DNA of 64,000 nucleotides from the NCBI GenBank assembly GCA_038884615.1, contig JAWABL010000003.1, positions 9,038 through 73,037 on the forward strand. The letters are read 5' to 3'. The DNA is from Candidatus Woesearchaeota archaeon. GTDB lineage: Archaea > Nanobdellota > Nanobdellia > Woesearchaeales > DSVV01. The notes under the pieces are model-generated. The model had not been told where the DNA came from. It worked only from the letters and a program-made list of their open reading frames with translations, and did not search any database. Shown here piece after piece: positions 9,333 through 61,425 of this stretch. Positions within the stretch are counted from its first letter, which is position 1. Every line of letters begins with the position of its first letter. The translations under genes were made by a program, and so were the position numbers.

Positions 9333-9791
9333 TTATTGGTCTTTTTTAATATTATTTTTTTTGACTATTATATTCTCTCCACAACGAACTCTTCCGCCTA
9401 TTACGACCTGCGCGAATATACCTTCTTTTGGCATTATACAACTGCCAGCTAATTTTGCAATTTTGCACGGCGCATGGCACTCCTTTCCAATCTTTGATAC
9501 TCTAAGCACCACTCTACCTATCTGCAAGAGGCACCCTATTTTCAATTTATGAAGCTTGACTCCCTTTGTCGTCAGATTTTCGCCAAAGCTTCCATGCTTA
9601 AAGCAGTGCATGCTTGTTGAGCTTTTCTTGAACCTTTCATAGGATTCAACAGCAAGCAGTGAAACTTGCCTTTTTCCTGGAGAAGCGTGAACATCGCCTT
9701 TTAATCCATAGTTTTTAATAAATACAGCGGTTTTAACAGGACGCTTCCTCCCTTTCACACGGCTTATGTTTATGGACACTATTTTCGCCAA
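9333..9791 (-). CDS. MOSC (MoCo sulfurase C-terminal) domain protein
   Basis: 152 aa, MOSC-like beta-barrel signature (LKGDVHAS...ENLTT.G). Last gene of the Moco operon, overlapping the end of moeA. Confidence 0.7.
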   Translation of the reverse strand: MAKIVSINISRVKGRKRPVKTAVFIKNYGLKGDVHASPGKRQVSLLAVESYERFKKSSTSMHCFKHGSFGENLTTKGVKLHKLKIGCLLQIGRVVLRVSKIGKECHAPCKIAKLAGSCIMPKEGIFAQVVIGGRVRCGENIIVKKNNIKKDQ

Positions 9792-11722
9792 ACAACTTCA
9801 CCGATATCACAAGGCACAACAATTCCAACTGATCTCTGAAGTGTTTTTTTAAACGAGTCTGATTTAAGTATCTCAATGAACTTCCGCACTGATGGCTTTT
9901 GGAGACTCTCTGTGTTTACGCAAAAATCGTAGTTTTCGCCTCTTAGCGGAATAAAAAACAGGTCATAGTTTACCGCAACAGCTTTTATCGCTATACCCCA
10001 GTCTGCTTTTCCCTGTGAAATCTTAGCGGCAACTGCTGTGTGAGTGTTGGCTTCAACCTCATAGCCTTTTATCTTCTGTATCAATCTATCAAAATCAAGC
10101 TCTTTACGCTTGCATAAATTCTTTAGAATTATTTCAAGAAGCACTCGCGTCCCGCTGCCTTTGTTTCTATTGATCATTCTATACTTAAAGATAAAGTCTT
10201 CAAGCTTCTTTCCTTTTACACCTTTTCTAAAAACAATTCCTTGCTCTCTCACATAGCCGCGAATAATACTCAGGTTTCTGTGCCTTGCAATAAAGGGAAC
10301 ATTGTAGATGCCGGTCTTCTCATCAAGCAGGTGTACTCCTGCAACATCTGCCTCTCCGCGTGCAGTCGCTTCAATCCCTGCGGTGCTTCCAGCATGCATA
10401 ACCTTGTATGTGAACCCTGATTTCCCAAGCATAGACAAAGCCGGCTCAAGCATTACGCAGTGGCTTCCTATGAAAGTAATATCTACCGGAGATATATTTT
10501 CTGAAAAAAGTTTGACATCAATTAATGAGTCTTTAAGGATTGATTCTGTATTTGTAGGTATCTCAAAGAATCCATCTGCAAATGCAAATGTAGTTATTGA
10601 GCCACTGCTTTTTGATATAGGGTAGGCAAAGATTCCATATTTTCCCTTTACTAAGTTAACAAGAATAAATTCATGCTTCCTCTCGGAATATATTCTCTGT
10701 GCAATCCTAGCCTTGATATGTTTGTGGTCGTATGAGGAAAGCCCTGCCTTAGCAGTTATCAGTGGACTACAAAAAAGCATAAAGGCTATCGCAGCCGAAG
10801 ACGGAAACCCTGGAAGAACAATCACAGGCTTATTTTTTGCCATGCCAAGAACCACTGGCTTGCCCGGCTTCATTGCAACACCATGAACGATAACTTCACC
10901 GACATTTTCAAGCGCCCTGTAGCAAAGGTCGCCCTTCCCGGCAGACGTCCCGCCTGACAAGATTACCATGTCATGCTCAAGACCCTTCAAAATTAAGGAC
11001 TGAATTTCAAGCATATTGTCCCTTGCGATTCCCAAGAACCTAGGCTCTGCAAGATGCTCTCTACACATATCGCAGATGAGTGACGCATTAATATCATATA
11101 TCTTACCTATAGGCAGCTTTTTTCCATGTGGAGATATCTCGTTTCCTGTACTTATCACTGCGACTTTTGGCTTTCTAAATACCTTAACAGTACAAAAACC
11201 TTGCGCAGCAAATACAGCAGATTCCCGCGGACCTATTTTTCGGCCCTTTTGAACAAGCACTTCGCCCTTCATCATGTCAGAGCCAGCGTGCATAACATTC
11301 TCGCCTGGAACCACCGGCCGATATACATTAACATACTCTCCTTCAATTGAAGTATTTTCAACCATAACTATTGCATTTGCACCTGTAGGAATAACTGCGC
11401 CAGTTGAAATTTCAGAGCAGTACCCTTTTAAAATCGCCTTTTTAGGATTTGTGCCAGCGGCTATTTTTTCTCCTGAAAGTTTTATTTTGACTGGTGATTC
11501 TTCGTCAGCGAAAAAAGTGTCTTTCGCGTTTACCGCATAACCATCTCGAGAAGAGCGGTCAAACGGAGGAACATCAATTCTTGCTATCACATCTTCAGCA
11601 AGAACCCTACCAAGAGCGTCAGAAAGAGAAACCCGTTCGGTGCCTATAGGCTCAAGCCCCGCACTTTTAAAAAAGATTTTTTTTGCCTCATCAATCTGCA
11701 TTAAATTATGGAACTCCCTCAA
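9779..11722 (-). CDS. moeA: Molybdopterin molybdenumtransferase MoeA fused to a C-terminal periplasmic-binding-protein-like (ModA/TupA-like) domain
   Basis: The N-terminal ~400 aa carry MoeA motifs (DGYAV, ISTGNEI, GGTSAGKGD, PGKPV). The C-terminal ~240 aa resemble a PBP-type oxyanion-binding fold (GSHCVMLEP...AGVHLLDEKTGIYN). Confidence 0.82.
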   Translation of the reverse strand: MREFHNLMQIDEAKKIFFKSAGLEPIGTERVSLSDALGRVLAEDVIARIDVPPFDRSSRDGYAVNAKDTFFADEESPVKIKLSGEKIAAGTNPKKAILKGYCSEISTGAVIPTGANAIVMVENTSIEGEYVNVYRPVVPGENVMHAGSDMMKGEVLVQKGRKIGPRESAVFAAQGFCTVKVFRKPKVAVISTGNEISPHGKKLPIGKIYDINASLICDMCREHLAEPRFLGIARDNMLEIQSLILKGLEHDMVILSGGTSAGKGDLCYRALENVGEVIVHGVAMKPGKPVVLGMAKNKPVIVLPGFPSSAAIAFMLFCSPLITAKAGLSSYDHKHIKARIAQRIYSERKHEFILVNLVKGKYGIFAYPISKSSGSITTFAFADGFFEIPTNTESILKDSLIDVKLFSENISPVDITFIGSHCVMLEPALSMLGKSGFTYKVMHAGSTAGIEATARGEADVAGVHLLDEKTGIYNVPFIARHRNLSIIRGYVREQGIVFRKGVKGKKLEDFIFKYRMINRNKGSGTRVLLEIILKNLCKRKELDFDRLIQKIKGYEVEANTHTAVAAKISQGKADWGIAIKAVAVNYDLFFIPLRGENYDFCVNTESLQKPSVRKFIEILKSDSFKKTLQRSVGIVVPCDIGEVVWRK

Positions 11723-12969
11723 AATAGATTCACCTCTATGCTTTCGCCGGTGTTGTACCCCTCAACATTTTCTGGAACAACTACAACGCCACTTGCTTCT
11801 GCAACTGTTCTTAGCGCGCTAGCACCTCCAAGCCTGAAAGGTAAAACGCAGTTCCTCTCAATTTTAACTCTAACAAAGTCTGTTCTTCCTGCTTGTGATG
11901 CGATTTTTCCAGTCAGTTTGTATTTCGCCTTACGCAGATGATCAAACGGATTGAAGTCGCACCCTTGCATTTTATATATTGCCGGCCTTACAAAAGCCTC
12001 AAACCCAATGAATGCTCCTACTGGACTGCCAGGAAGAAGAAAGATAGGTTTTTTTTTAACAACACCAAACCCGGCTGGACTTGCAGGGCGCATTGAAACG
12101 CCGTGAAAAACAAGCTTGCCCTCATCCAAAACTACGATAGGCGCGAGATCTTTCTCCCCAACAGATGTACCACCAGTAATTAAGATTATATCTTCAATAC
12201 ATGAAAGAATCGCTTTCTTAATTTTTTCTTTGTCATCCTTTACAATAGGCTTTATAGAAGGCAAAGCTCCAGAATCCTTAGCAAGCGCAGCAAGCATTGG
12301 GCTGTTTGAGTCAATTGTTTTAAACGGCCGTCTCTTTCTGACAATCTCATTACCGGTTGCAATGATCGCCACCGTTGGTTTTTTGAAAACGCGAACTTGT
12401 GTCTTGTTGAGGTTTGCCAAAATGCCTATGTGTTCTGGCCTAATTTTTGTTTTTTTTCTTATTGCAACATCACCTTTTCTGAAATCATCTCCCGCATGGA
12501 TAACATTTTTGCCTGGGGGAACTGCAGCAAATACTTTCACAAGATGGTTTTTCTCCTCAGTGTATTCTGCCATAACAACTGCGTTGGCATTTTTCGGAAG
12601 CATAGCGCCAGTCATTATCTTTATAGTTGTGCCCTGCTTCAGAGCTAGCTTAACTTTTTTTCCAGGAAAGGCCTCACCTACAATAGGCAGCTCAATCGGA
12701 TTTAGAGGGGAAGCACCGAATGTATCCTCGGCGATTACAGCATAACCATCCATTGCAGAACGGCTGAAAAGAGGAATATCAAACCTAGCTACAACATCTT
12801 CCGCAAGTATTCTATTTGGCGCGTTTAATATGTCCACTACTTCGACTTCAAGCTCTGGCGTTGTTCTTTTTACTAGTAGCAAAGCGTCTTGAAAGCGCAT
12901 TTTTTTCAAAAACCCTTTCATCCTAACATCTGTTTTGTCATCTATAAAGTTTTTTGACATAAGACTCAT
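11719..12969 (-). CDS. moeA: Molybdopterin molybdenumtransferase MoeA (second, stand-alone copy)
   Basis: 416 aa with MoeA motifs (MDGYAV, IATGNEIV, GGTSVGEKD, LPGSPVG). Start/stop overlaps its neighbours (operon). Confidence 0.85.
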   Translation of the reverse strand: MSLMSKNFIDDKTDVRMKGFLKKMRFQDALLLVKRTTPELEVEVVDILNAPNRILAEDVVARFDIPLFSRSAMDGYAVIAEDTFGASPLNPIELPIVGEAFPGKKVKLALKQGTTIKIMTGAMLPKNANAVVMAEYTEEKNHLVKVFAAVPPGKNVIHAGDDFRKGDVAIRKKTKIRPEHIGILANLNKTQVRVFKKPTVAIIATGNEIVRKRRPFKTIDSNSPMLAALAKDSGALPSIKPIVKDDKEKIKKAILSCIEDIILITGGTSVGEKDLAPIVVLDEGKLVFHGVSMRPASPAGFGVVKKKPIFLLPGSPVGAFIGFEAFVRPAIYKMQGCDFNPFDHLRKAKYKLTGKIASQAGRTDFVRVKIERNCVLPFRLGGASALRTVAEASGVVVVPENVEGYNTGESIEVNLF

Positions 12970-12972
12970 GCC

Positions 12973-13512
12973 TCAACCGCAAACATGCCCAACAATATGC
13001 CCTGCCTCCGGAAGAATTAGTTTCTCAAGAGCAAGCCTGCAGGCTCTCGGACTTCCTGGGATGCAGAAAACAGCCTTACCCTTTGCTGTCCCTGCTGTTG
13101 CTCTTGAAAGCATAGCTGCGCTTCCTATTTTGTTATAGCTAGTGAGCGAAAAAAGCGCGCTGAAGGAAGAAAGCTCTTTTTCAAAAAACGGCCTTACCGC
13201 CTCAATGGTGACATCGCTTTTTGCAATCCCTGTACCACCGGTAAAGATAATTACATCTGAGTTTCCTTCACAAAGCCGGCGCAGCTCGTCTCTGATCGCC
13301 TTTTTATCGTCTTTTACAATGGAGTATGAAACAACATAGTGCCCTTCCCTGCTCACGAGTTCAGCAATAACCTTTCCGCTTATATCATTTTCCTTTGTTT
13401 TTGTCGTGCTAACAGTAACTAAAGCAAACTTAAGATGGCTCGGCGCAGAAGCCTTATGCTGTTTTGAAGTGTCCACATGCTCGCAGTTCTCTTTATCGCA
13501 CATTACTCCCAC
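12973..13512 (-). CDS. moaB: Molybdenum cofactor biosynthesis protein MoaB/MogA
   Basis: 179 aa with the FTGGTGIAKSDVT motif typical of the MogA/MoaB family. Confidence 0.85.
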   Translation of the reverse strand: MGVMCDKENCEHVDTSKQHKASAPSHLKFALVTVSTTKTKENDISGKVIAELVSREGHYVVSYSIVKDDKKAIRDELRRLCEGNSDVIIFTGGTGIAKSDVTIEAVRPFFEKELSSFSALFSLTSYNKIGSAAMLSRATAGTAKGKAVFCIPGSPRACRLALEKLILPEAGHIVGHVCG

Positions 13513-13946
13513 TTAACCTTTTTTTTGACTTGGACATCTGATATTTTTGCATGGTTGTACTGGCCCGTCACGTCCTTCTCAAGGTATTTTACCATGTCCC
13601 ATATTGTAAGAAGAGCAACTGACACACCGACAAGGGCTTCCATTTCAACGCCTGTTTTTGCGTCTGCACTGACCTCGCACATCGCCTTTATTCTATCCTT
13701 CCTAACTAAAAAGTTAAGAGAAACAAGATCAAGTTGTATGTTGTGACAGAGGGGGATAAGCAGTGAAGTCTGCTTGGCAGCATTTATCCCGGCAATCTCA
13801 GCTGCAACAAGAGGGTCACCTTTTTTTATTTTTCCTGCCCTTACAGCATCTATAGTGGTATCCTTAAGAAAGATTGAACCTACTGCAGTCGCGCTCCTTT
13901 TTACTGGCTTTTTTTGGCTTATGTCAGTCATCGCCATTTTAACCAT
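13503..13946 (-). CDS. moaC: Cyclic pyranopterin monophosphate synthase MoaC
   Basis: 147 aa with conserved MoaC core (LIPLCHNIQL...EMEALVGVSVALLTIWDM). Confidence 0.9.
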   Translation of the reverse strand: MVKMAMTDISQKKPVKRSATAVGSIFLKDTTIDAVRAGKIKKGDPLVAAEIAGINAAKQTSLLIPLCHNIQLDLVSLNFLVRKDRIKAMCEVSADAKTGVEMEALVGVSVALLTIWDMVKYLEKDVTGQYNHAKISDVQVKKKVKWE

Positions 13947-14054: not shown

Positions 14055-14906
14055 TTATTTAAGCGGTTTTCTGTTTGCTGGTCTGCTTTGCAAAACAGGT
14101 GCGAATGCACTTTGCTGGATAGGCACTGCTTCTTTCATCAAGCATTCTTTAATCCTGCCATCTGCGCTTATTCTTATCTTGTTGCATGACTCGCAAAACT
14201 GCGGTGATGGAGTCACAGTTTCAACAAACATTGTGCCAAAATGATAGCGTTTCCGCGCTTGCATTTTGCGCTTCTCTTGCCAGTCGCATTTTTCTGCGAG
14301 GTGCTTTTCGATATGCAAAAGAGGGAGGTGTAATCTTTGATAGTCTTCGTCGGTTACTCTACCAAGCTTTATAAGTTCTATAAGTTGCAGGTTGACATTA
14401 TACTGCATGCAAAAATCTAGCATCGGAAAAATCTCAGTATCGTTAACACCTTTCAAAACCACCATATTAAGTTTTACCTTGATATTTGCCTTTTTTGCAA
14501 AAAGTATCGCAGATTTGATGCGCTCTGTGTTTTTTGGAAGTGCTTCAGACAGACTGTCGCATCCGATATTGACTCTGTCAAGTCCTGCACGACTGAGTTG
14601 TTGTGCATATTTCGGTAACATGAGTCCATTTGTTACAAGCGAGACCTCCAAATAGCCGATTGAGTTTGCAATGCTCACTATCTGCACAATATCTTCCCTA
14701 AGCAATGGCTCTCCGCCTGTGAGTTTAAGAGTTGTTATTCCTGCGGCATTTGCAGCCTCAAGCAGACTCTTTATTTGAATAAGGCTCATCTCAGCTTCGT
14801 TTTCTACGCTGCCTTCTTTATGGCAGTAGAAACAGTCTAGGTTGCACTTTTCTGTGACGCTTAAGCGGAGGTGCGTCTTTTCCCTTCCTAAAGAGTCAAT
14901 TATCAT
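14055..14906 (-). CDS. moaA: GTP 3',8-cyclase MoaA (radical SAM)
   Basis: CNLDCFYCH radical-SAM cysteine triad, LKLTGGEPLLR and the MoaA C-terminal region. The ATG overlaps the stop of the upstream regulator (ATGA). Confidence 0.85.
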   Translation of the reverse strand: MIIDSLGREKTHLRLSVTEKCNLDCFYCHKEGSVENEAEMSLIQIKSLLEAANAAGITTLKLTGGEPLLREDIVQIVSIANSIGYLEVSLVTNGLMLPKYAQQLSRAGLDRVNIGCDSLSEALPKNTERIKSAILFAKKANIKVKLNMVVLKGVNDTEIFPMLDFCMQYNVNLQLIELIKLGRVTDEDYQRLHLPLLHIEKHLAEKCDWQEKRKMQARKRYHFGTMFVETVTPSPQFCESCNKIRISADGRIKECLMKEAVPIQQSAFAPVLQSRPANRKPLK

Positions 14907-15244
14907 TGTCTCTCCATTGCCTTCTCATACCTTGTTGTGAGCATTTTTCCGATATGAGTGAGCTTTGTTGAACCACCTGCATCTTTGCCTCCTTTACTAC
15001 TTTCAATAATCTTCCTGCCAAGGCGCTGCTCAATCCGCTTAATATAGTTGTATGCGGTCTTATAAGATATGCCAACCGCATCGGCGCTTTTTTTTAGAGA
15101 CTTTGTGATTTCAATCTCTTTCAGTAGTCTATATCTCCCTTCCCCAATAAGTGGGCAGCCGTTGTATTCAAGCCAGAACTTGTATTTTGTTTTAGTCCTA
15201 ATATTATCCGCCCCTCTTTTAATCAGGAAGTTTGCGATATGAAT
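14903..15244 (-). CDS. ModE N-terminal-like winged-helix (molybdate-responsive) regulator. No ATG/GTG/TTG start is present in frame.
   Basis: The open frame between the TAA at 15245-15247 and the TGA at 14903-14905 translates to ...KYKFWLEYNGCPLIGEGRYRLLKEIEITKSLKKSADAVGISYKTAYNYIKRIEQRLGRKIIESSKGGKDAGGSTKLTHIGKMLTTRYEKAMERQ. This closely parallels ModE-N (ISYKSAWDAINEMNQ...GGKGGGGAVLT..G..L). The frame is absent from the ORF track because no canonical start codon occurs in it. Confidence 0.55.
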   Translation of the reverse strand: MHIANFLIKRGADNIRTKTKYKFWLEYNGCPLIGEGRYRLLKEIEITKSLKKSADAVGISYKTAYNYIKRIEQRLGRKIIESSKGGKDAGGSTKLTHIGKMLTTRYEKAMERQ

Positions 15245-15326
15245 TTAAATACTTTTCGCTATGCATTAATCAATTGTGCATTAATTAATATTTTTCATAA
15301 TTTCAAAAAACACATAAAATTAGGAT

Positions 15327-19889: not shown

Positions 19890-20569
19890 ATCTACATAAA
19901 GTGGTATAAAAATTTATCTACATGTTTTCCATCTTTTTATATAAGAAATAAACTCATTGCTAGGCAAATGCCCGCTTAGCCAGTCAAAAATGAGCTGGTT
20001 AATTTGCTCCCGTAAAAGACAATCGTGCTGAATATCTTGTCTTGGGCCAATATAGGATGTGCTTACAACAAAATCATCTATATAATAATAAACTTCTGGA
20101 TATTGAACATTCCAACCAGAAATGATAAACTTATAACTATTCTGTATTTCTCCTCCACTGGCTGTAAATTATATAGGGTAATCATTAACTTGTTGTACTC
20201 CATTAATCCATAAAGAAGTTTTATCTAACCCTGGCAAAAGCTCTATTTTCCATTCAACTAAAACCCACCCACGCCATGCTGGTCCCAAAAAAAGTAAGTT
20301 CTATTACCACCTTCTTGGATAGAAGGCCCAATATTATTTGCAATCCACTCTTCATCATTACAACCATAAGAGTGTATCGCTAAAAGGCTATGACCTCCAT
20401 CATAACAGTCTAAATATCTTAATCCATTTGGATCTCTCTGTGGGCATCTCTTTTCTCCGCAATCCCTAAAATCAAGACTTGCTACAGCTGCACTAGCTGT
20501 ATTGGCAAATAAAAAATGTGCTGAGGCACTTGACAAGTGAGAGGCATGCTCTGGTGGTACATATAAATA
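19890..20569 (-). pseudogene. Decayed gene with a LamG/concanavalin-A-like jelly-roll C-terminal region. Broken by frameshifts and stops, and truncated upstream by a MITE insertion.
   Basis: Three reading-frame segments on the minus strand give contiguous peptide pieces (...GNRTYFFWDQHGVGGF* / LVEWKIELLPGLDKTSLWINGVQQVNDYPI* / FTASGGEIQNSYKFIISGWNVQYPEVYYYIDDFVVSTSYIGP...). The last piece resembles the LamG-domain C-terminus (G...YIDD.R(I/V)). Confidence 0.45.
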
Positions 20570-20735
20570 GGCACCGTTCAAAAAGTGTGTTAGCATCCAC
20601 CGCGTATGCACATTCAGGAACAATATATGGGTTTGAAGTTGAGTTGTTCCATACGGAGAACCAGATATTTCCATTTGAACGGAAAAGTGCCAACATGATG
20701 GTAAGCCGACCGAAAACGAGATTTTGAACGGTGCC
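20570..20735 (+). mobile_element. MITE copy A (166 bp). 14-bp TIRs GGCACCGTTCAAAA/TTTTGAACGGTGCC, flanked by a 9-bp TSD ATATAAATA.
   Basis: A perfect terminal inverted repeat, and direct duplication of atataaata at 20561-20569 and 20736-20744. Confidence 0.85.
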
Positions 20736-20819
20736 ATATAAATATAGGTGGTAAAAAAGACGTATTATAAAGATTACTTTCAATATTATAATAGAGGCTT
20801 ATAATTATAAATATTACGA

Positions 20820-22145: not shown

Positions 22146-22305
22146 TTTTAAGGATAATATGAGTTTAACTACAATATAAGCTTTTCATTTTTACTAACTT
22201 CATCTAAAATTAAAAACTGATTATTTTAAGTAAGGTTATTTATAGTGTCGTAAGACTAGAACAATAAGATCAAAACCATATAAGCTATAATTGTAATAAC
22301 AAACC

Positions 22306-22470
22306 GGCTGCGTTCAAAAAGTGTGTTAGCATCCACCGCGTATGCACATTCAGGAACAATATATGGGTTTGAAGTGAGTTGTTCCATACGGAGAACCAGA
22401 TATTTTGATTTGAATGGAAAATGCCAACATGATGTTAAACCGACCGAAAACGAGATTTTGAACGCAGCCC
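22306..22470 (+). mobile_element. MITE copy B (~165 bp). Variant TIRs GGCTGCGTTCAAAA/TTTTGAACGCAGCC, with TSD TAACAAACC.
   Basis: Same internal sequence as copy A (about 93% identical). Both TIR halves carry the complementary CTGC/GCAG variant. Direct repeat taacaaacc at 22297-22305 and 22471-22479. Confidence 0.85.
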
Positions 22471-22516
22471 TAACAAACCATAAACAATAAATACTAGTCA
22501 CATCAAAACAGATTTT

Positions 22517-48668: not shown

Positions 48669-48714
48669 GCTACTTCACACCGTTATTTGTTATAAATAGT
48701 TTTCTTTTTCCTAT

Positions 48715-48877
48715 GGCTGCGTTCAAAATCTCGTTTTCGGTCGGCTTACCATCATTGGCACTTTTCCGTTCAAATGAAAATATCTGGTTCTCCGTATGGA
48801 ACAACTCACCTCAAACCCATATATGATTCCTGAATGTGCATACGCGGTGGATGCTAACACACTTTTTGAACGGTGCC
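48715..48877 (-). mobile_element. MITE copy C (~163 bp), inverted relative to copies A and B. Hybrid termini (GGCTGCG... at one end, ...CGGTGCC at the other). TSD TTTTTCCTAT.
   Basis: Internal sequence is the reverse complement of copy A. Direct repeat tttttcctat at 48705-48714 and 48878-48887. Confidence 0.85.
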
Positions 48878-48945
48878 TTTTTCCTATAAATCTTTTTTTC
48901 TATAACAAAATAGAAGCATAAAGTAGCAAAAGGAAGAAGGAGCTC

Positions 48946-49620
48946 TCATCTAACTGGGTTATATTCATAATTTTTCCTTAGAAAAAAGCCTTTGCACACC
49001 TTAAAAGTTGTTCTCAGAATTCCTTCCTTTTGCCAGCGTCTTGAAGAGGTTTTTATGAAGCTTTCAGTGATGTAAGCAAGCTTTCCTTTTTTTTTCAAGG
49101 CAAGCAGAAAGTAAGTGTCCTCACCTATCCTAAGCGAAACATCAAAGCCAGGAAAAACATCCCTGCGACAGAACATAATTCCTGATGCCGTCAAAAAAAA
49201 TTGTTTTGAGATGTTGCCTATCCACCAAGCGACTTTGGGAGCAACGGCGTTCTCAATTGAGGTTGTCTTTGTGGTTCCGCCTACATAGCCCAAGGAAACA
49301 TAATAGGAGATTCTTTCAAGGAGATTTTTTGCGATAATTGAGTCTGCATCAAGAAAAACAAGTATTTCGCCTCTGGCCTTCTCAGCACCGGTATTTCTAG
49401 CAAGAGAGACATTTGCAGGTTTAATTTTGATTGCCCTTACCCTACCGTCATTTATGGCTCGAACAACCTGATAGGTCCTGTCTGTGCAGCCATTACAGAT
49501 AACTATAATTTCAAAGTTTTGATAGGATTGATGAATTACAGAGTCTATACACCTGACTATTAGTTTTTCTTCGTTGTATGCTGGAATAATTACCGAAATG
49601 GAAGGAGAGGTTCTCGTTAT
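48946..49620 (-). CDS. GT2-family glycosyltransferase. Intact reading frame with no canonical start codon; a candidate ATA start overlaps the upstream gene's stop as ATAA.
   Basis: Continuous frame ...ISVIIPAYNEEKLIVRCIDSVIHQSYQNFEIIVICNGCTDRT...ILVFLDADSII...GYVGGTTK...RIGEDTYF (the GT2 DXD and ED motifs). The ORF track lists only the 3' 115 codons, starting from an internal TTG. Confidence 0.65.
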   Translation of the reverse strand: MTRTSPSISVIIPAYNEEKLIVRCIDSVIHQSYQNFEIIVICNGCTDRTYQVVRAINDGRVRAIKIKPANVSLARNTGAEKARGEILVFLDADSIIAKNLLERISYYVSLGYVGGTTKTTSIENAVAPKVAWWIGNISKQFFLTASGIMFCRRDVFPGFDVSLRIGEDTYFLLALKKKGKLAYITESFIKTSSRRWQKEGILRTTFKVCKGFFLRKNYEYNPVR

Positions 49621-50480
49621 ATCACCATAAGAAAATCATTAATTATCTTAGAAAGCTCATGGGGTTTTCGTATGGGATTAAGATGGTCAGTACGCCTCAT
49701 GATAACAAGCTTTGCCTTTTCGCCGATTATTTTTTTTATATCACAAACGGCCTTTCTAGAAAGTGCCATATCCATATCTCCACTAATTAGCAAAACTGGC
49801 TTATTGATATTTTTAAGATGAAACCTTATATCAAAGTTAAACATCTCGGCGGCTATTGAAAAATAGGCGTCTGCGGGCGTGCATCTTAGGTCATGAAACA
49901 ATACAGTGAATGCGTTGCAACTACCAAGCCTGCTATAATCTATATAGGGGTAACTTTTTCTCTTTATTTTCCCCGTAAGCCATGCAAGTCCCTTTGCGCC
50001 AGCAACAAAAATTGGCGTTACTTTATCAAGATAAGGAATTATTTGATATTTAAGCGGATTTACTGCAGGAGTTGCAATAAGGACAAACGCCTTTGCTTTG
50101 CCAGGATAGAGTTTGTCGTATTCAAGCGCGACCATCCCTCCGAGCGAATGTCCGATAAGCACAAAATTTTTTATCTTTTCAGACTCAATAATTGAATCAA
50201 TATCCATTGCAAAATTTGTTATTGTATATCTTTTATTATGGTTCTGCTTGTGTGACTTACCATGCCCGCATAAGTCTATTGCAACTGAAGGATAGTTGCC
50301 TTTGAAAAAATCTATTTGATGATTCCAGACGGTGCAGTTCCCACTTATACCGTGCAAGAATATAAGATAAGTATTCTTTTTTCCTTTCTCAATCCTATAA
50401 AATATTTTTATACCGTCAAAGCTATCAATAAATTTTTCCATAAAAGTAAAAATTATGCATCGTATTTTAAAGTTTATCAT
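49617..50480 (-). CDS. Alpha/beta hydrolase fold protein
   Basis: Nucleophile elbow GHSLGG, an HG oxyanion region (IFLHGISGN), and an Asp and His in the C-terminal part. Confidence 0.75.
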   Translation of the reverse strand: MINFKIRCIIFTFMEKFIDSFDGIKIFYRIEKGKKNTYLIFLHGISGNCTVWNHQIDFFKGNYPSVAIDLCGHGKSHKQNHNKRYTITNFAMDIDSIIESEKIKNFVLIGHSLGGMVALEYDKLYPGKAKAFVLIATPAVNPLKYQIIPYLDKVTPIFVAGAKGLAWLTGKIKRKSYPYIDYSRLGSCNAFTVLFHDLRCTPADAYFSIAAEMFNFDIRFHLKNINKPVLLISGDMDMALSRKAVCDIKKIIGEKAKLVIMRRTDHLNPIRKPHELSKIINDFLMVI

Positions 50481-61259: not shown

Positions 61260-61425
61260 GGCACCGTTCAAAATCTCGTTTTCGGTCGGCTTACCATCAT
61301 GTTGGCACTTTTCCGTTCAAATGAAAATATCTGGTTCTCCGTATGGAACAACTCAACTTCAAACCCATATATGGTTCCTGAATGTGCATACGCGGTAGAT
61401 GCTAACACACTTTTTGAACGGTGCC
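61260..61425 (-). mobile_element. MITE copy D (166 bp), same orientation as copy C. TIRs GGCACCG.../...CGGTGCC. TSD (C)AAAGACAATC.
   Basis: Direct repeat caaagacaatc at 61249-61259 and 61426-61436. Confidence 0.85.

Follow-up and report, generated by a model that had tools for sequence, protein, structure and literature searches.

A ModE-like regulator gene that lacks a canonical start codon heads a molybdenum cofactor operon in a Woesearchaeota archaeon and is probably translated from an AUU codon

The window analyzed here, a stretch of 64,000 nucleotides from the metagenome-assembled genome (MAG) of a Candidatus Woesearchaeota archaeon (GenBank assembly GCA_038884615.1, 75-kb contig JAWABL010000003.1, positions 9,038 to 73,037), carries on its minus strand an operon for biosynthesis of the molybdenum cofactor (Moco), at whose head lies the gene for a small ModE-like regulator. 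This regulator gene has no canonical start codon. Read along the minus strand, a TAA (15247-15245) is followed by the codons ATT-CAT-ATC and an open frame of 113 codons (15244..14906) that is closed by a TGA (14905-14903), and the first in-frame ATG, GTG, or TTG is codon 101 of the 113. An initial annotation had described this frame, bounded by stops and free of those three codons in its first 100, as encoding a convincing ModE winged helix-turn-helix (wHTH) domain, and both the sequence and the TIGR00637 profile agree with that description. The downstream gene order that it gave (moaA-moaC-moaB-moeA-moeA(PBP)-MOSC) and the coupling of the first two genes, in which the regulator TGA overlaps the moaA ATG (14906-14904) as ATGA, are likewise borne out by Pfam and NCBIfam models together with the sequence. 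As no canonical start precedes codon 101, the frame is missing from a mechanical list of ATG/GTG/TTG open reading frames (ORFs). The NCBI record of the regulator (accession no. MEM4267421.1; 113 aa) consists of a methionine followed by the remainder of the open frame and thus has its start placed at ATT 15244.

Comparison with domain models and solved structures identified the product as a stand-alone ModE-type DNA-binding domain. TIGR00637, the ModE repressor domain, matches residues 33-109 of the translation (E = 4e-18; 65.3 bits, with a curated cutoff of 98.5), Pfam HTH_1 reaches 26.3 bits, slightly below its cutoff of 26.6, and a profile of the regulator family matches the N-terminal domains of solved ModE structures (PDB code 2ijl, 6.9e-11; E. 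coli ModE, PDB code 1b9m, 9.4e-10). An AlphaFold2 model shows the three-helix-plus-wing topology with a mean predicted local distance difference test (pLDDT) score of 81. Within this fold, the segment YKFWLEYN (residues 20-27) forms a strand that sits 80 codons upstream of the first canonical start (mean pLDDT of 78 for the block 21-30), and the conserved residues from K22 and W24 onward precede codon 101; residues 5-18 are modeled at a pLDDT of <50. No Pfam or NCBIfam match to a Mop/TOBE molybdate-binding domain was obtained, the regulator frame ending right after the wHTH with moaA following, and the full-length ModE model NF007957 gives 40 bits against a cutoff of 369. Thus, the designation "ModE-like" is apt for the DNA-binding domain and does not extend beyond it. 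The name in the NCBI record, LysR family transcriptional regulator, was considered and rejected: HTH_1 stays under its cutoff, there is no substrate-binding domain, and the product has ~99 aa compared to about 300 aa for LysR-type proteins.

By looking up proteins, scanning genomes and metagenomes, and inspecting the neighbors of MoaA, we assembled 16 distinct loci for which DNA is available, a small sample to which the scans of genome and metagenome contigs gave 6 and 8 loci; two further loci are known as gene calls only (107 and 99 aa). A protein search with the regulator recovered the source MAG itself and five proteins at 63 to 67% identity, and in the collections searched the best homologue of the regulator stands at 67% identity and that of MoaA at 57%. 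The regulator lies directly upstream of moaA in every locus, and the Moco genes continue in all of the longer loci, with the full order after the regulator matched in three (L001, L004, and L025) and its first genes in two (L006 and L008). Canonical starts are present in 13 of the 16. Six of these are of the leaderless type (L001, L003, L004, L006, L026, and L027), with an ATG, GTG, or TTG placed 18 to 24 nt after the TATA box and no Shine-Dalgarno (SD) sequence; six others (L008, L011, L013, L014, L017, and L018) have it ~27 to 30 nt beyond the TATA box, often preceded by GGGAG or GGGGGA; and L024 has an in-frame TTG, its contig beginning inside the promoter, so that the spacing from the TATA box is not measurable.

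The remaining three, namely, the window, L010, and L025, have no usable canonical start. L010 (GTDB MAG CAZPXC010000075.1) reads ...TATCGC TAA TCC CTG ATA AAA GGG GTT GGT AAT ATC AGG ATA GGC TAC AGG TAT AAG GTA TGG; no canonical codon occurs before TTG 27, within the conserved PLLG, and its in-frame TAA comes immediately after the conserved promoter element, at a place aligned with open codons 1 to 14 of the window. L025 (Logan SRR28093593) reads ...AAAAAGGGTG TGA CAG ATA GAA CTC AGC TAC AAC TAC AAG ATA TGG, where the ATA is the sole near-cognate codon before the conserved strand (here YKIW) and an in-frame TGA stands two codons ahead of it. Codon alignment unites the window ATT (15202-15200), the L010 ATC, the L025 ATA, and the L017 ATG at one position, six residues before the invariant YKxW. 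The initial annotation had suggested looking in related genomes for an ATG in place of the missing start; one orthologue has an ATG at the aligned codon, and the reading frame is conserved.

We then compared candidate initiation codons by folding the 20 nt upstream of each against the 3' tail of 16S rRNA (GAUCACCUCCU, assumed from the universal sequence, as the window has no rRNA). ATT 15202 is the only in-frame near-cognate codon of the window, among those tested, that has an SD. Of the 8935 ATH triplets of the window, only 1.6% equal its interaction energy of -9.5 kcal/mol, and a stronger one is found at only 2 of 42 gene starts. ATT 15244, ATC 15238, CTG 15226, and ATT 15223 yield -0.1 to -1.1 kcal/mol, that is, no SD. 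The aligned codons of the two other start-less genes have comparable energies (-9.1 kcal/mol for the L010 ATC and -8.2 kcal/mol for the L025 ATA), and each of the three Ile codons lies 6 to 8 nt after its SD. Canonical-start orthologues of the leaderless type have energies of -1.1 to -4.4 kcal/mol. A weak codon is thus coupled to a strong SD in all three start-less genes. SDs of -6 kcal/mol or better precede ~19% of the 42 window gene starts, several of the strongest being at operon-internal genes, and the data suggest that leaderless mRNAs predominate in this Woesearchaeota genome.

The sequence upstream of the regulator follows the consensus CGAAAAG-N-AYTTAAAT-N-C-N-TATCG in every related locus with available upstream sequence. 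This element combines a motif resembling the transcription factor B recognition element (BRE) with a TATA box and at the same time forms an imperfect palindrome of 24 bp centered on TTTAAA. The pattern CGAWAWGWATTTAAATWCWTWTCG has one 0-mismatch occurrence in the window, and none is seen in 100 shuffles even with 3 mismatches allowed. As the element is conserved as a BRE/TATA unit, both the "upstream stop" TAA and the ATT chosen by NCBI belong to the TATA box, and the NCBI model probably has its start 14 codons too far upstream, within the promoter. The codons ATT-CAT-ATC, to which the initial annotation had pointed as the first after the stop, are accordingly poor candidates for the start: they are part of the TATA box and dyad, and at the aligned place L010 is interrupted by a TAA in frame. 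About nine window genes possess a BRE/TATA unit of the same type, with the TATA 8-mer ending 22 to 26 nt before the ATG, a spacing that is the signature of leaderless mRNAs and calibrates the distance from the TATA box to the 5' end in this genome. Applied to a TATA box ending at 15244 or 15242, it predicts a 5' end at ~15221 to 15215, which would lie downstream of ATT 15223 and CTG 15226 and 13 to 19 nt upstream of ATT 15202, with most or all of the GAGGGG inside the leader.

The same dyad (15258-15235) is a candidate auto-operator overlapping the core promoter of the regulator itself. Its arms are 8 bp apart, as in the experimentally defined ModE site of Methanosarcina acetivorans, RTTATGT-N8-RCATAAY (PMC12327845). 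The 3' arm, (T/A)CATAT, resembles the RCATAAY half-site, TCATAT differing from RCATAA at the R position (a pyrimidine) and at the last base; the 5' arm, AAAAGT, which doubles as the BRE, agrees with TTATGT poorly, at 3 of 6 positions. Sigma-70 promoter and terminator models, which do not apply to archaea, returned nothing in the window that exceeded shuffled sequence, and Rfam recovered two tRNAs only in the window, with no RNA element at the regulator locus and no 16S rRNA. The features of the locus are collected in Table 1.

Table 1. Features of the regulator locus and the downstream Moco operon (window coordinates)
Feature	Position	Strand	Basis and remarks
Dyad-symmetric promoter/operator element (operator role is a candidate assignment)	15235..15258	-	CGAAAAG-TATTTAAAT-TCATATCG in gene sense; BRE-like CGAAAAG, TATA box, and downstream CATATCG arm
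TATA box TATTTAAATT	15242..15251	-	Contains the "upstream stop" TAA 15247-15245 and the NCBI start ATT 15244-15242
Open, probably untranslated codons 1-14	15203..15244	-	N-terminal extension of the NCBI model; holds in-frame ATT 15244, ATC 15238, CTG 15226, and ATT 15223
Predicted transcription start zone	15215..15221	-	From the TATA-to-ATG spacing of ~nine window genes
Shine-Dalgarno GAGGGG	15211..15216	-	8 nt upstream of ATT 15202; -9.5 kcal/mol
Proposed initiation codon ATT	15200..15202	-	Codon 15 of the open frame; alignment and SD
Regulator coding sequence as proposed	14903..15202	-	99 codons plus TGA; stand-alone ModE-N-type winged helix; TIGR00637, PDB ModE N-domains, invariant residues, AlphaFold2
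moaA	14055..14906	-	Radical_SAM and Mob_synth_C; NF001199, 257 bits, over cutoff; own SD-like GGAGAG, -6.4 kcal/mol
moaC	13946-13503	-	Pfam/NCBIfam
moaB	13512-12973	-	Pfam/NCBIfam
moeA	12969-11719	-	Pfam/NCBIfam
moeA-PBP_like	11722-9779	-	Pfam/NCBIfam
MOSC gene	9791-9333	-	Pfam/NCBIfam; moaC to MOSC together, 9333..13946

On these observations, the account that we favor, and consider probable as a whole, is that the regulator is a functional protein of ~99 aa translated from ATT 15202 behind a strong SD, together with a model of its promoter, dosage, and autoregulation that is read from the sequence. The regulator would be the first cistron of the Moco operon, transcribed from the conserved BRE/TATA promoter into an mRNA with a predicted 5' end near 15219, whose short leader (about 15 to 18 nt) carries the GAGGGG. 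Initiation would take place at AUU 15202-15200, presumably read by the initiator Met-tRNA, to give a 99-aa product beginning (M)RTKTKYKFWLEY, with a predicted N-terminal peptide (M)RTKTKYKFWLEYNGCPLIGEGR. The pairing of a weak codon with a strong SD may hold the regulator at a low level compared with the enzymes made from the shared mRNA; judging by bacterial systems, a near-cognate start would lower the yield of the first cistron. MoaA would be translated with its own SD and the ATGA overlap with the regulator stop. The regulator itself probably binds the dyad as a dimer and would autorepress the operon by occluding the TATA-binding protein and transcription factor B, any molybdate response being likewise inferred. 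Initiation at a rare codon (ATT, ATC, or ATA), one of two outcomes envisaged in the initial annotation, gains support from three independent start-less loci that share an Ile codon at the same position and a strong SD.

Several points weigh against initiation at ATT 15202. In Sulfolobus, archaeal initiation factor 1 (aIF1) excludes AUU from 30S complexes in vitro (reviewed in PMC4705826). A 5' end at the downstream edge of the predicted zone would put the SD at the extreme 5' end of the mRNA, and the SD energies themselves depend on an assumed 16S tail. Some canonical-start orthologues have the aligned Ile as an internal residue (MGIR in L011 and L001), so its recurrence could reflect ancestry and not selection as a start. 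The collections searched contain no close relative of the window organism, so that this particular ATT is known from one assembly of its species. Finally, the likeness of the dyad to a ModE operator is good in one arm only.

The strongest competitor, which we nonetheless regard as quite unlikely, places the start at a near-cognate codon farther upstream in the frame, that is, at ATT 15223 or CTG 15226 on a leaderless or nearly leaderless mRNA or at ATT 15244, where the NCBI annotation of 113 aa begins. ATT 15223 lies 18 nt after the TATA 8-mer, a spacing equal to that of the L004 GTG, and L010 retains CTG-ATA at the place aligned with CTG 15226/ATT 15223 of the window, the differences amounting to a 3-nt indel and synonymous Ile changes. 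However, none of them follows an SD, and leaderless initiation relies heavily on an AUG at the very 5' end. The leaderless ATGs of this genome come 22 to 26 nt after the TATA box, so the 5' end probably falls downstream of 15223 and 15226 (ATT 15223 is ~4 nt short of the smallest TATA-to-ATG spacing observed in this genome), and ATT 15244 and ATC 15238 are themselves part of the stretch formed by the TATA box and the dyad element. Moreover, equivalents of the upstream starts are excluded by the in-frame TAA in L010 and the in-frame TGA in L025, the latter having upstream neither a CTG nor a second Ile codon, and the upstream extension includes the residues 5-18 that are modeled at low confidence.

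A little less likely again is the other outcome raised in the initial annotation, namely, a recent loss of the start that left a decaying, untranslated pseudogene and an operon expressed without its regulator. The frame does lack a canonical start, one substitution (G to T at 15200) is all that separates the ATT from an ancestral ATG (L017 has ATG at the aligned codon), and a very recent loss, in the window lineage alone, would leave no further scars. Against this, we found neither a broken frame nor lost conserved residues nor relaxed constraint: the frame has no frameshift or stop, none of the 40 family-invariant residues is missing, the regulator is still coupled to moaA by ATGA, and the ratio of nonsynonymous to synonymous substitution rates (dN/dS) against orthologues is 0.09 to 0.27 where dS is unsaturated, a measure of limited use, as most pairs have reached saturation in dS. 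Two diverged lineages that do not group with the window are likewise start-less, with the Ile codon and a strong SD. In a neighbor-joining tree of the regulator plus MoaA, L010 falls in a clade with 98% support that includes the canonical-start loci L011, L013, and L024, and the window and L025 lie elsewhere; the start-less loci are thus polyphyletic, and the canonical start was lost, or regained, more than once. Three recent, independent pseudogenizations that each kept an SD at a working spacing would be an improbable coincidence.

It is very improbable that an error of assembly or base calling, or a minority allele in the MAG consensus, masks a true ATG or GTG. It is true that the window derives from one MAG contig, that its species has no second assembly, and that one base change would restore an ATG. 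Nevertheless, ORFs of 912, 1233, 1261, and 1415 aa are unbroken and 83% of the window lies under ORFs of at least 100 codons, which makes an error rate high enough to erase start codons unlikely. Independent assemblies from other projects are start-less at the same codon, and to account for a second start-less gene in the window (see below), another error would have to fall precisely on a start codon. Least credible is recoding from an upstream ORF, by frameshifting or by termination-reinitiation after a 15-codon ORF (ATG 15266..TAA 15219) whose TAA (15221-15219) overlaps ATT 15223 and lies 17 nt before ATT 15202, given that this ORF begins upstream of the conserved TATA box and so is probably not transcribed from this promoter, that it has no counterpart in L010 or L025, and that there is neither a slippery site nor a canonical start in another frame leading into the regulator.

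Gene calls and record titles for the regulator family show some irregularities. The calls are cut to 83 aa in L025 (1253-1504, from TTG 19), 75 aa in L026 (359-586), and 81 aa in L027 (959-1204), being too short because the caller took an ATG or TTG farther inside the gene. Over the gene and the upstream stretch compared, L027 and L028 do not differ, yet they are called at 81 and 100 aa, respectively; L010 is absent from the results of the protein search. Start prediction for this family is unreliable. The claim of the initial annotation that the gene is invisible to ORF callers accordingly holds for programs limited to ATG, GTG, and TTG (L010 is missed and L025 reduced to 83 aa) but not for NCBI, which has the window gene as MEM4267421.1. 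L010, L013 (CAYXZQ010000044.1), and L014 (CAYGAC010000063.1) are recorded as "uncultured Methanosarcinales" or "Thermoplasmatales" archaeon, and their regulator and MoaA sequences cluster tightly with those of Woesearchaeota MAGs (L013 versus L011, 91% for the regulator and 79% for MoaA); judging by these sequences, the taxonomy in the record titles is probably mislabeled.

The window holds a second gene whose frame offers no canonical start. The minus-strand frame 49635..48946 encodes a stand-alone glycosyltransferase of family GT2 and is free of ATG, GTG, and TTG through codon 114, and the Pfam domain starts at residue 14, ahead of any canonical start. Homologues are 210 to 231 aa long in the closer matches, and seven that were read begin with M(x0-4)(I/L)S(V/I)(I/V)IPA. 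There are two candidate starts. The ATA at 49620-49618, where NCBI begins the protein (accession no. MEM4267455.1), comes directly after GGTGAT and overlaps as ATAA the TAA of the upstream alpha/beta-hydrolase gene (49617-50480); the ATT at 49599-49597 would give M-SVIIPAYNEE, like the homologues. With two forced noncanonical starts among ~49 window genes, the lineage may possibly tolerate starts at Ile codons in general. When ~70 kb of related loci was searched for other conserved frames without a start, only shadow frames came up apart from the ModE-like genes. We entertain, as a tentative and rather doubtful extension, that Woesearchaeota or a subset of them have relaxed start selection, with AUU, AUC, and AUA serving as sole starts of intact genes at percent-level frequency, and that in the ModE-like family ATG was replaced independently several times, the weak codon and strong SD being selected for dosage. 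If true, this could point to altered discrimination by aIF1 or the initiator tRNA in these reduced archaea, and the second start-less gene makes a genome-wide survey of start codons in Woesearchaeota worthwhile.

Two further features of the window were noted. A repeat of ~130 to 200 nt occurs in four copies, in both orientations and at 82 to 98% identity (20548-20735, 22284-22493, 48691-48887, and 61260-61425), in intergenic or weakly coding stretches, with one copy overlapping a hypothetical 159-aa ORF that lacks a Pfam match (20258-20737). It has no Rfam match at the gathering threshold and could be a mobile element resembling miniature inverted-repeat transposable elements or a family of small RNAs. 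Between the gene for the 912-aa beta-helix protein and the repeat-containing ORF lies a minus-strand open frame of 84 codons (19914-20168), with its first canonical start at codon 68 and no Pfam match, which could be a gene fragment or noncoding.

If AUU 15202 is indeed the start, the regulator would exemplify initiation at Ile codons occurring naturally, and repeatedly in evolution, among archaea, whose aIF1 rejects AUU in vitro. For annotation, callers that admit only ATG, GTG, and TTG miss or shorten this regulator, so that reconstructions of the regulation of molybdenum or tungsten cofactors in DPANN archaea would mistakenly count it as missing or defective. The conserved dyad that spans the TATA box offers a concrete candidate operator for a minimal regulator that consists of the ModE N-terminal domain only, without a ligand domain.

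As to its relation with known systems, the regulator resembles the ModE proteins of E. coli (PDB code 1b9m) and M. acetivorans (PMC12327845) in its homologous N-terminal winged helix, in its genomic association with molybdenum metabolism, and in having close by a palindromic element whose arms are 8 bp apart, one of them of the RCATA type. It differs from them in lacking the Mop/TOBE domain and ending at ~99 aa, in having a candidate operator that coincides with its own BRE/TATA, and in the poor 5' arm of that operator. The best PDB match, 2ijl ("molybdenum-binding transcriptional repressor"; E = 7e-11, residues 24-103), is similarly short and dominated by the wHTH, but it comes from another organism, has 135 aa rather than ~99, and has no known link to a noncanonical start.

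Archaeal start codons, as known from genomics, are AUG, GUG, and UUG, and to our knowledge very few genes initiated at near-cognate codons have been documented in archaea. Initiation solely at AUU, AUC, AUA, or CUG has been established for a handful of bacterial genes, namely, infC, pcnB, and the Deinococcus dnaA (ATC) and rpsL (CTG), the latter two by N-terminal proteomics (PMC2830850). As in E. coli infC (encoding IF3) and pcnB, both with AUU, and the two Deinococcus genes, an intact, conserved gene without ATG, GTG, or TTG has a near-cognate Ile or Leu codon after an SD, the noncanonical start is common to several related genomes, and the proposed role is a low or regulated level of the protein. 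In the regulator family, too, the frame is intact, and a near-cognate codon with a ribosome-binding site at a functional spacing is conserved in orthologues. The bacterial examples are experimentally proven, whereas the present one is a transcription regulator of DPANN archaea known from sequence alone; and the AUU of infC is nearly universal and sensed by IF3 itself, in contrast to a start-less state that is sporadic (3 of 16 loci) and polyphyletic. Ribosome profiling of Haloferax volcanii found that ~30% of putative alternative initiation sites are near-cognate (PMC7261190), which is akin to the present case in that archaeal ribosomes can occupy such codons; those sites, unlike ATT 15202, are alternative or internal and were set aside by the authors as possible false positives, not being the sole start of a conserved gene. 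What is unusual in the regulator family is that the start-less state is found in archaea of the DPANN group, recurs within one gene family, and is paired with compensating SDs.

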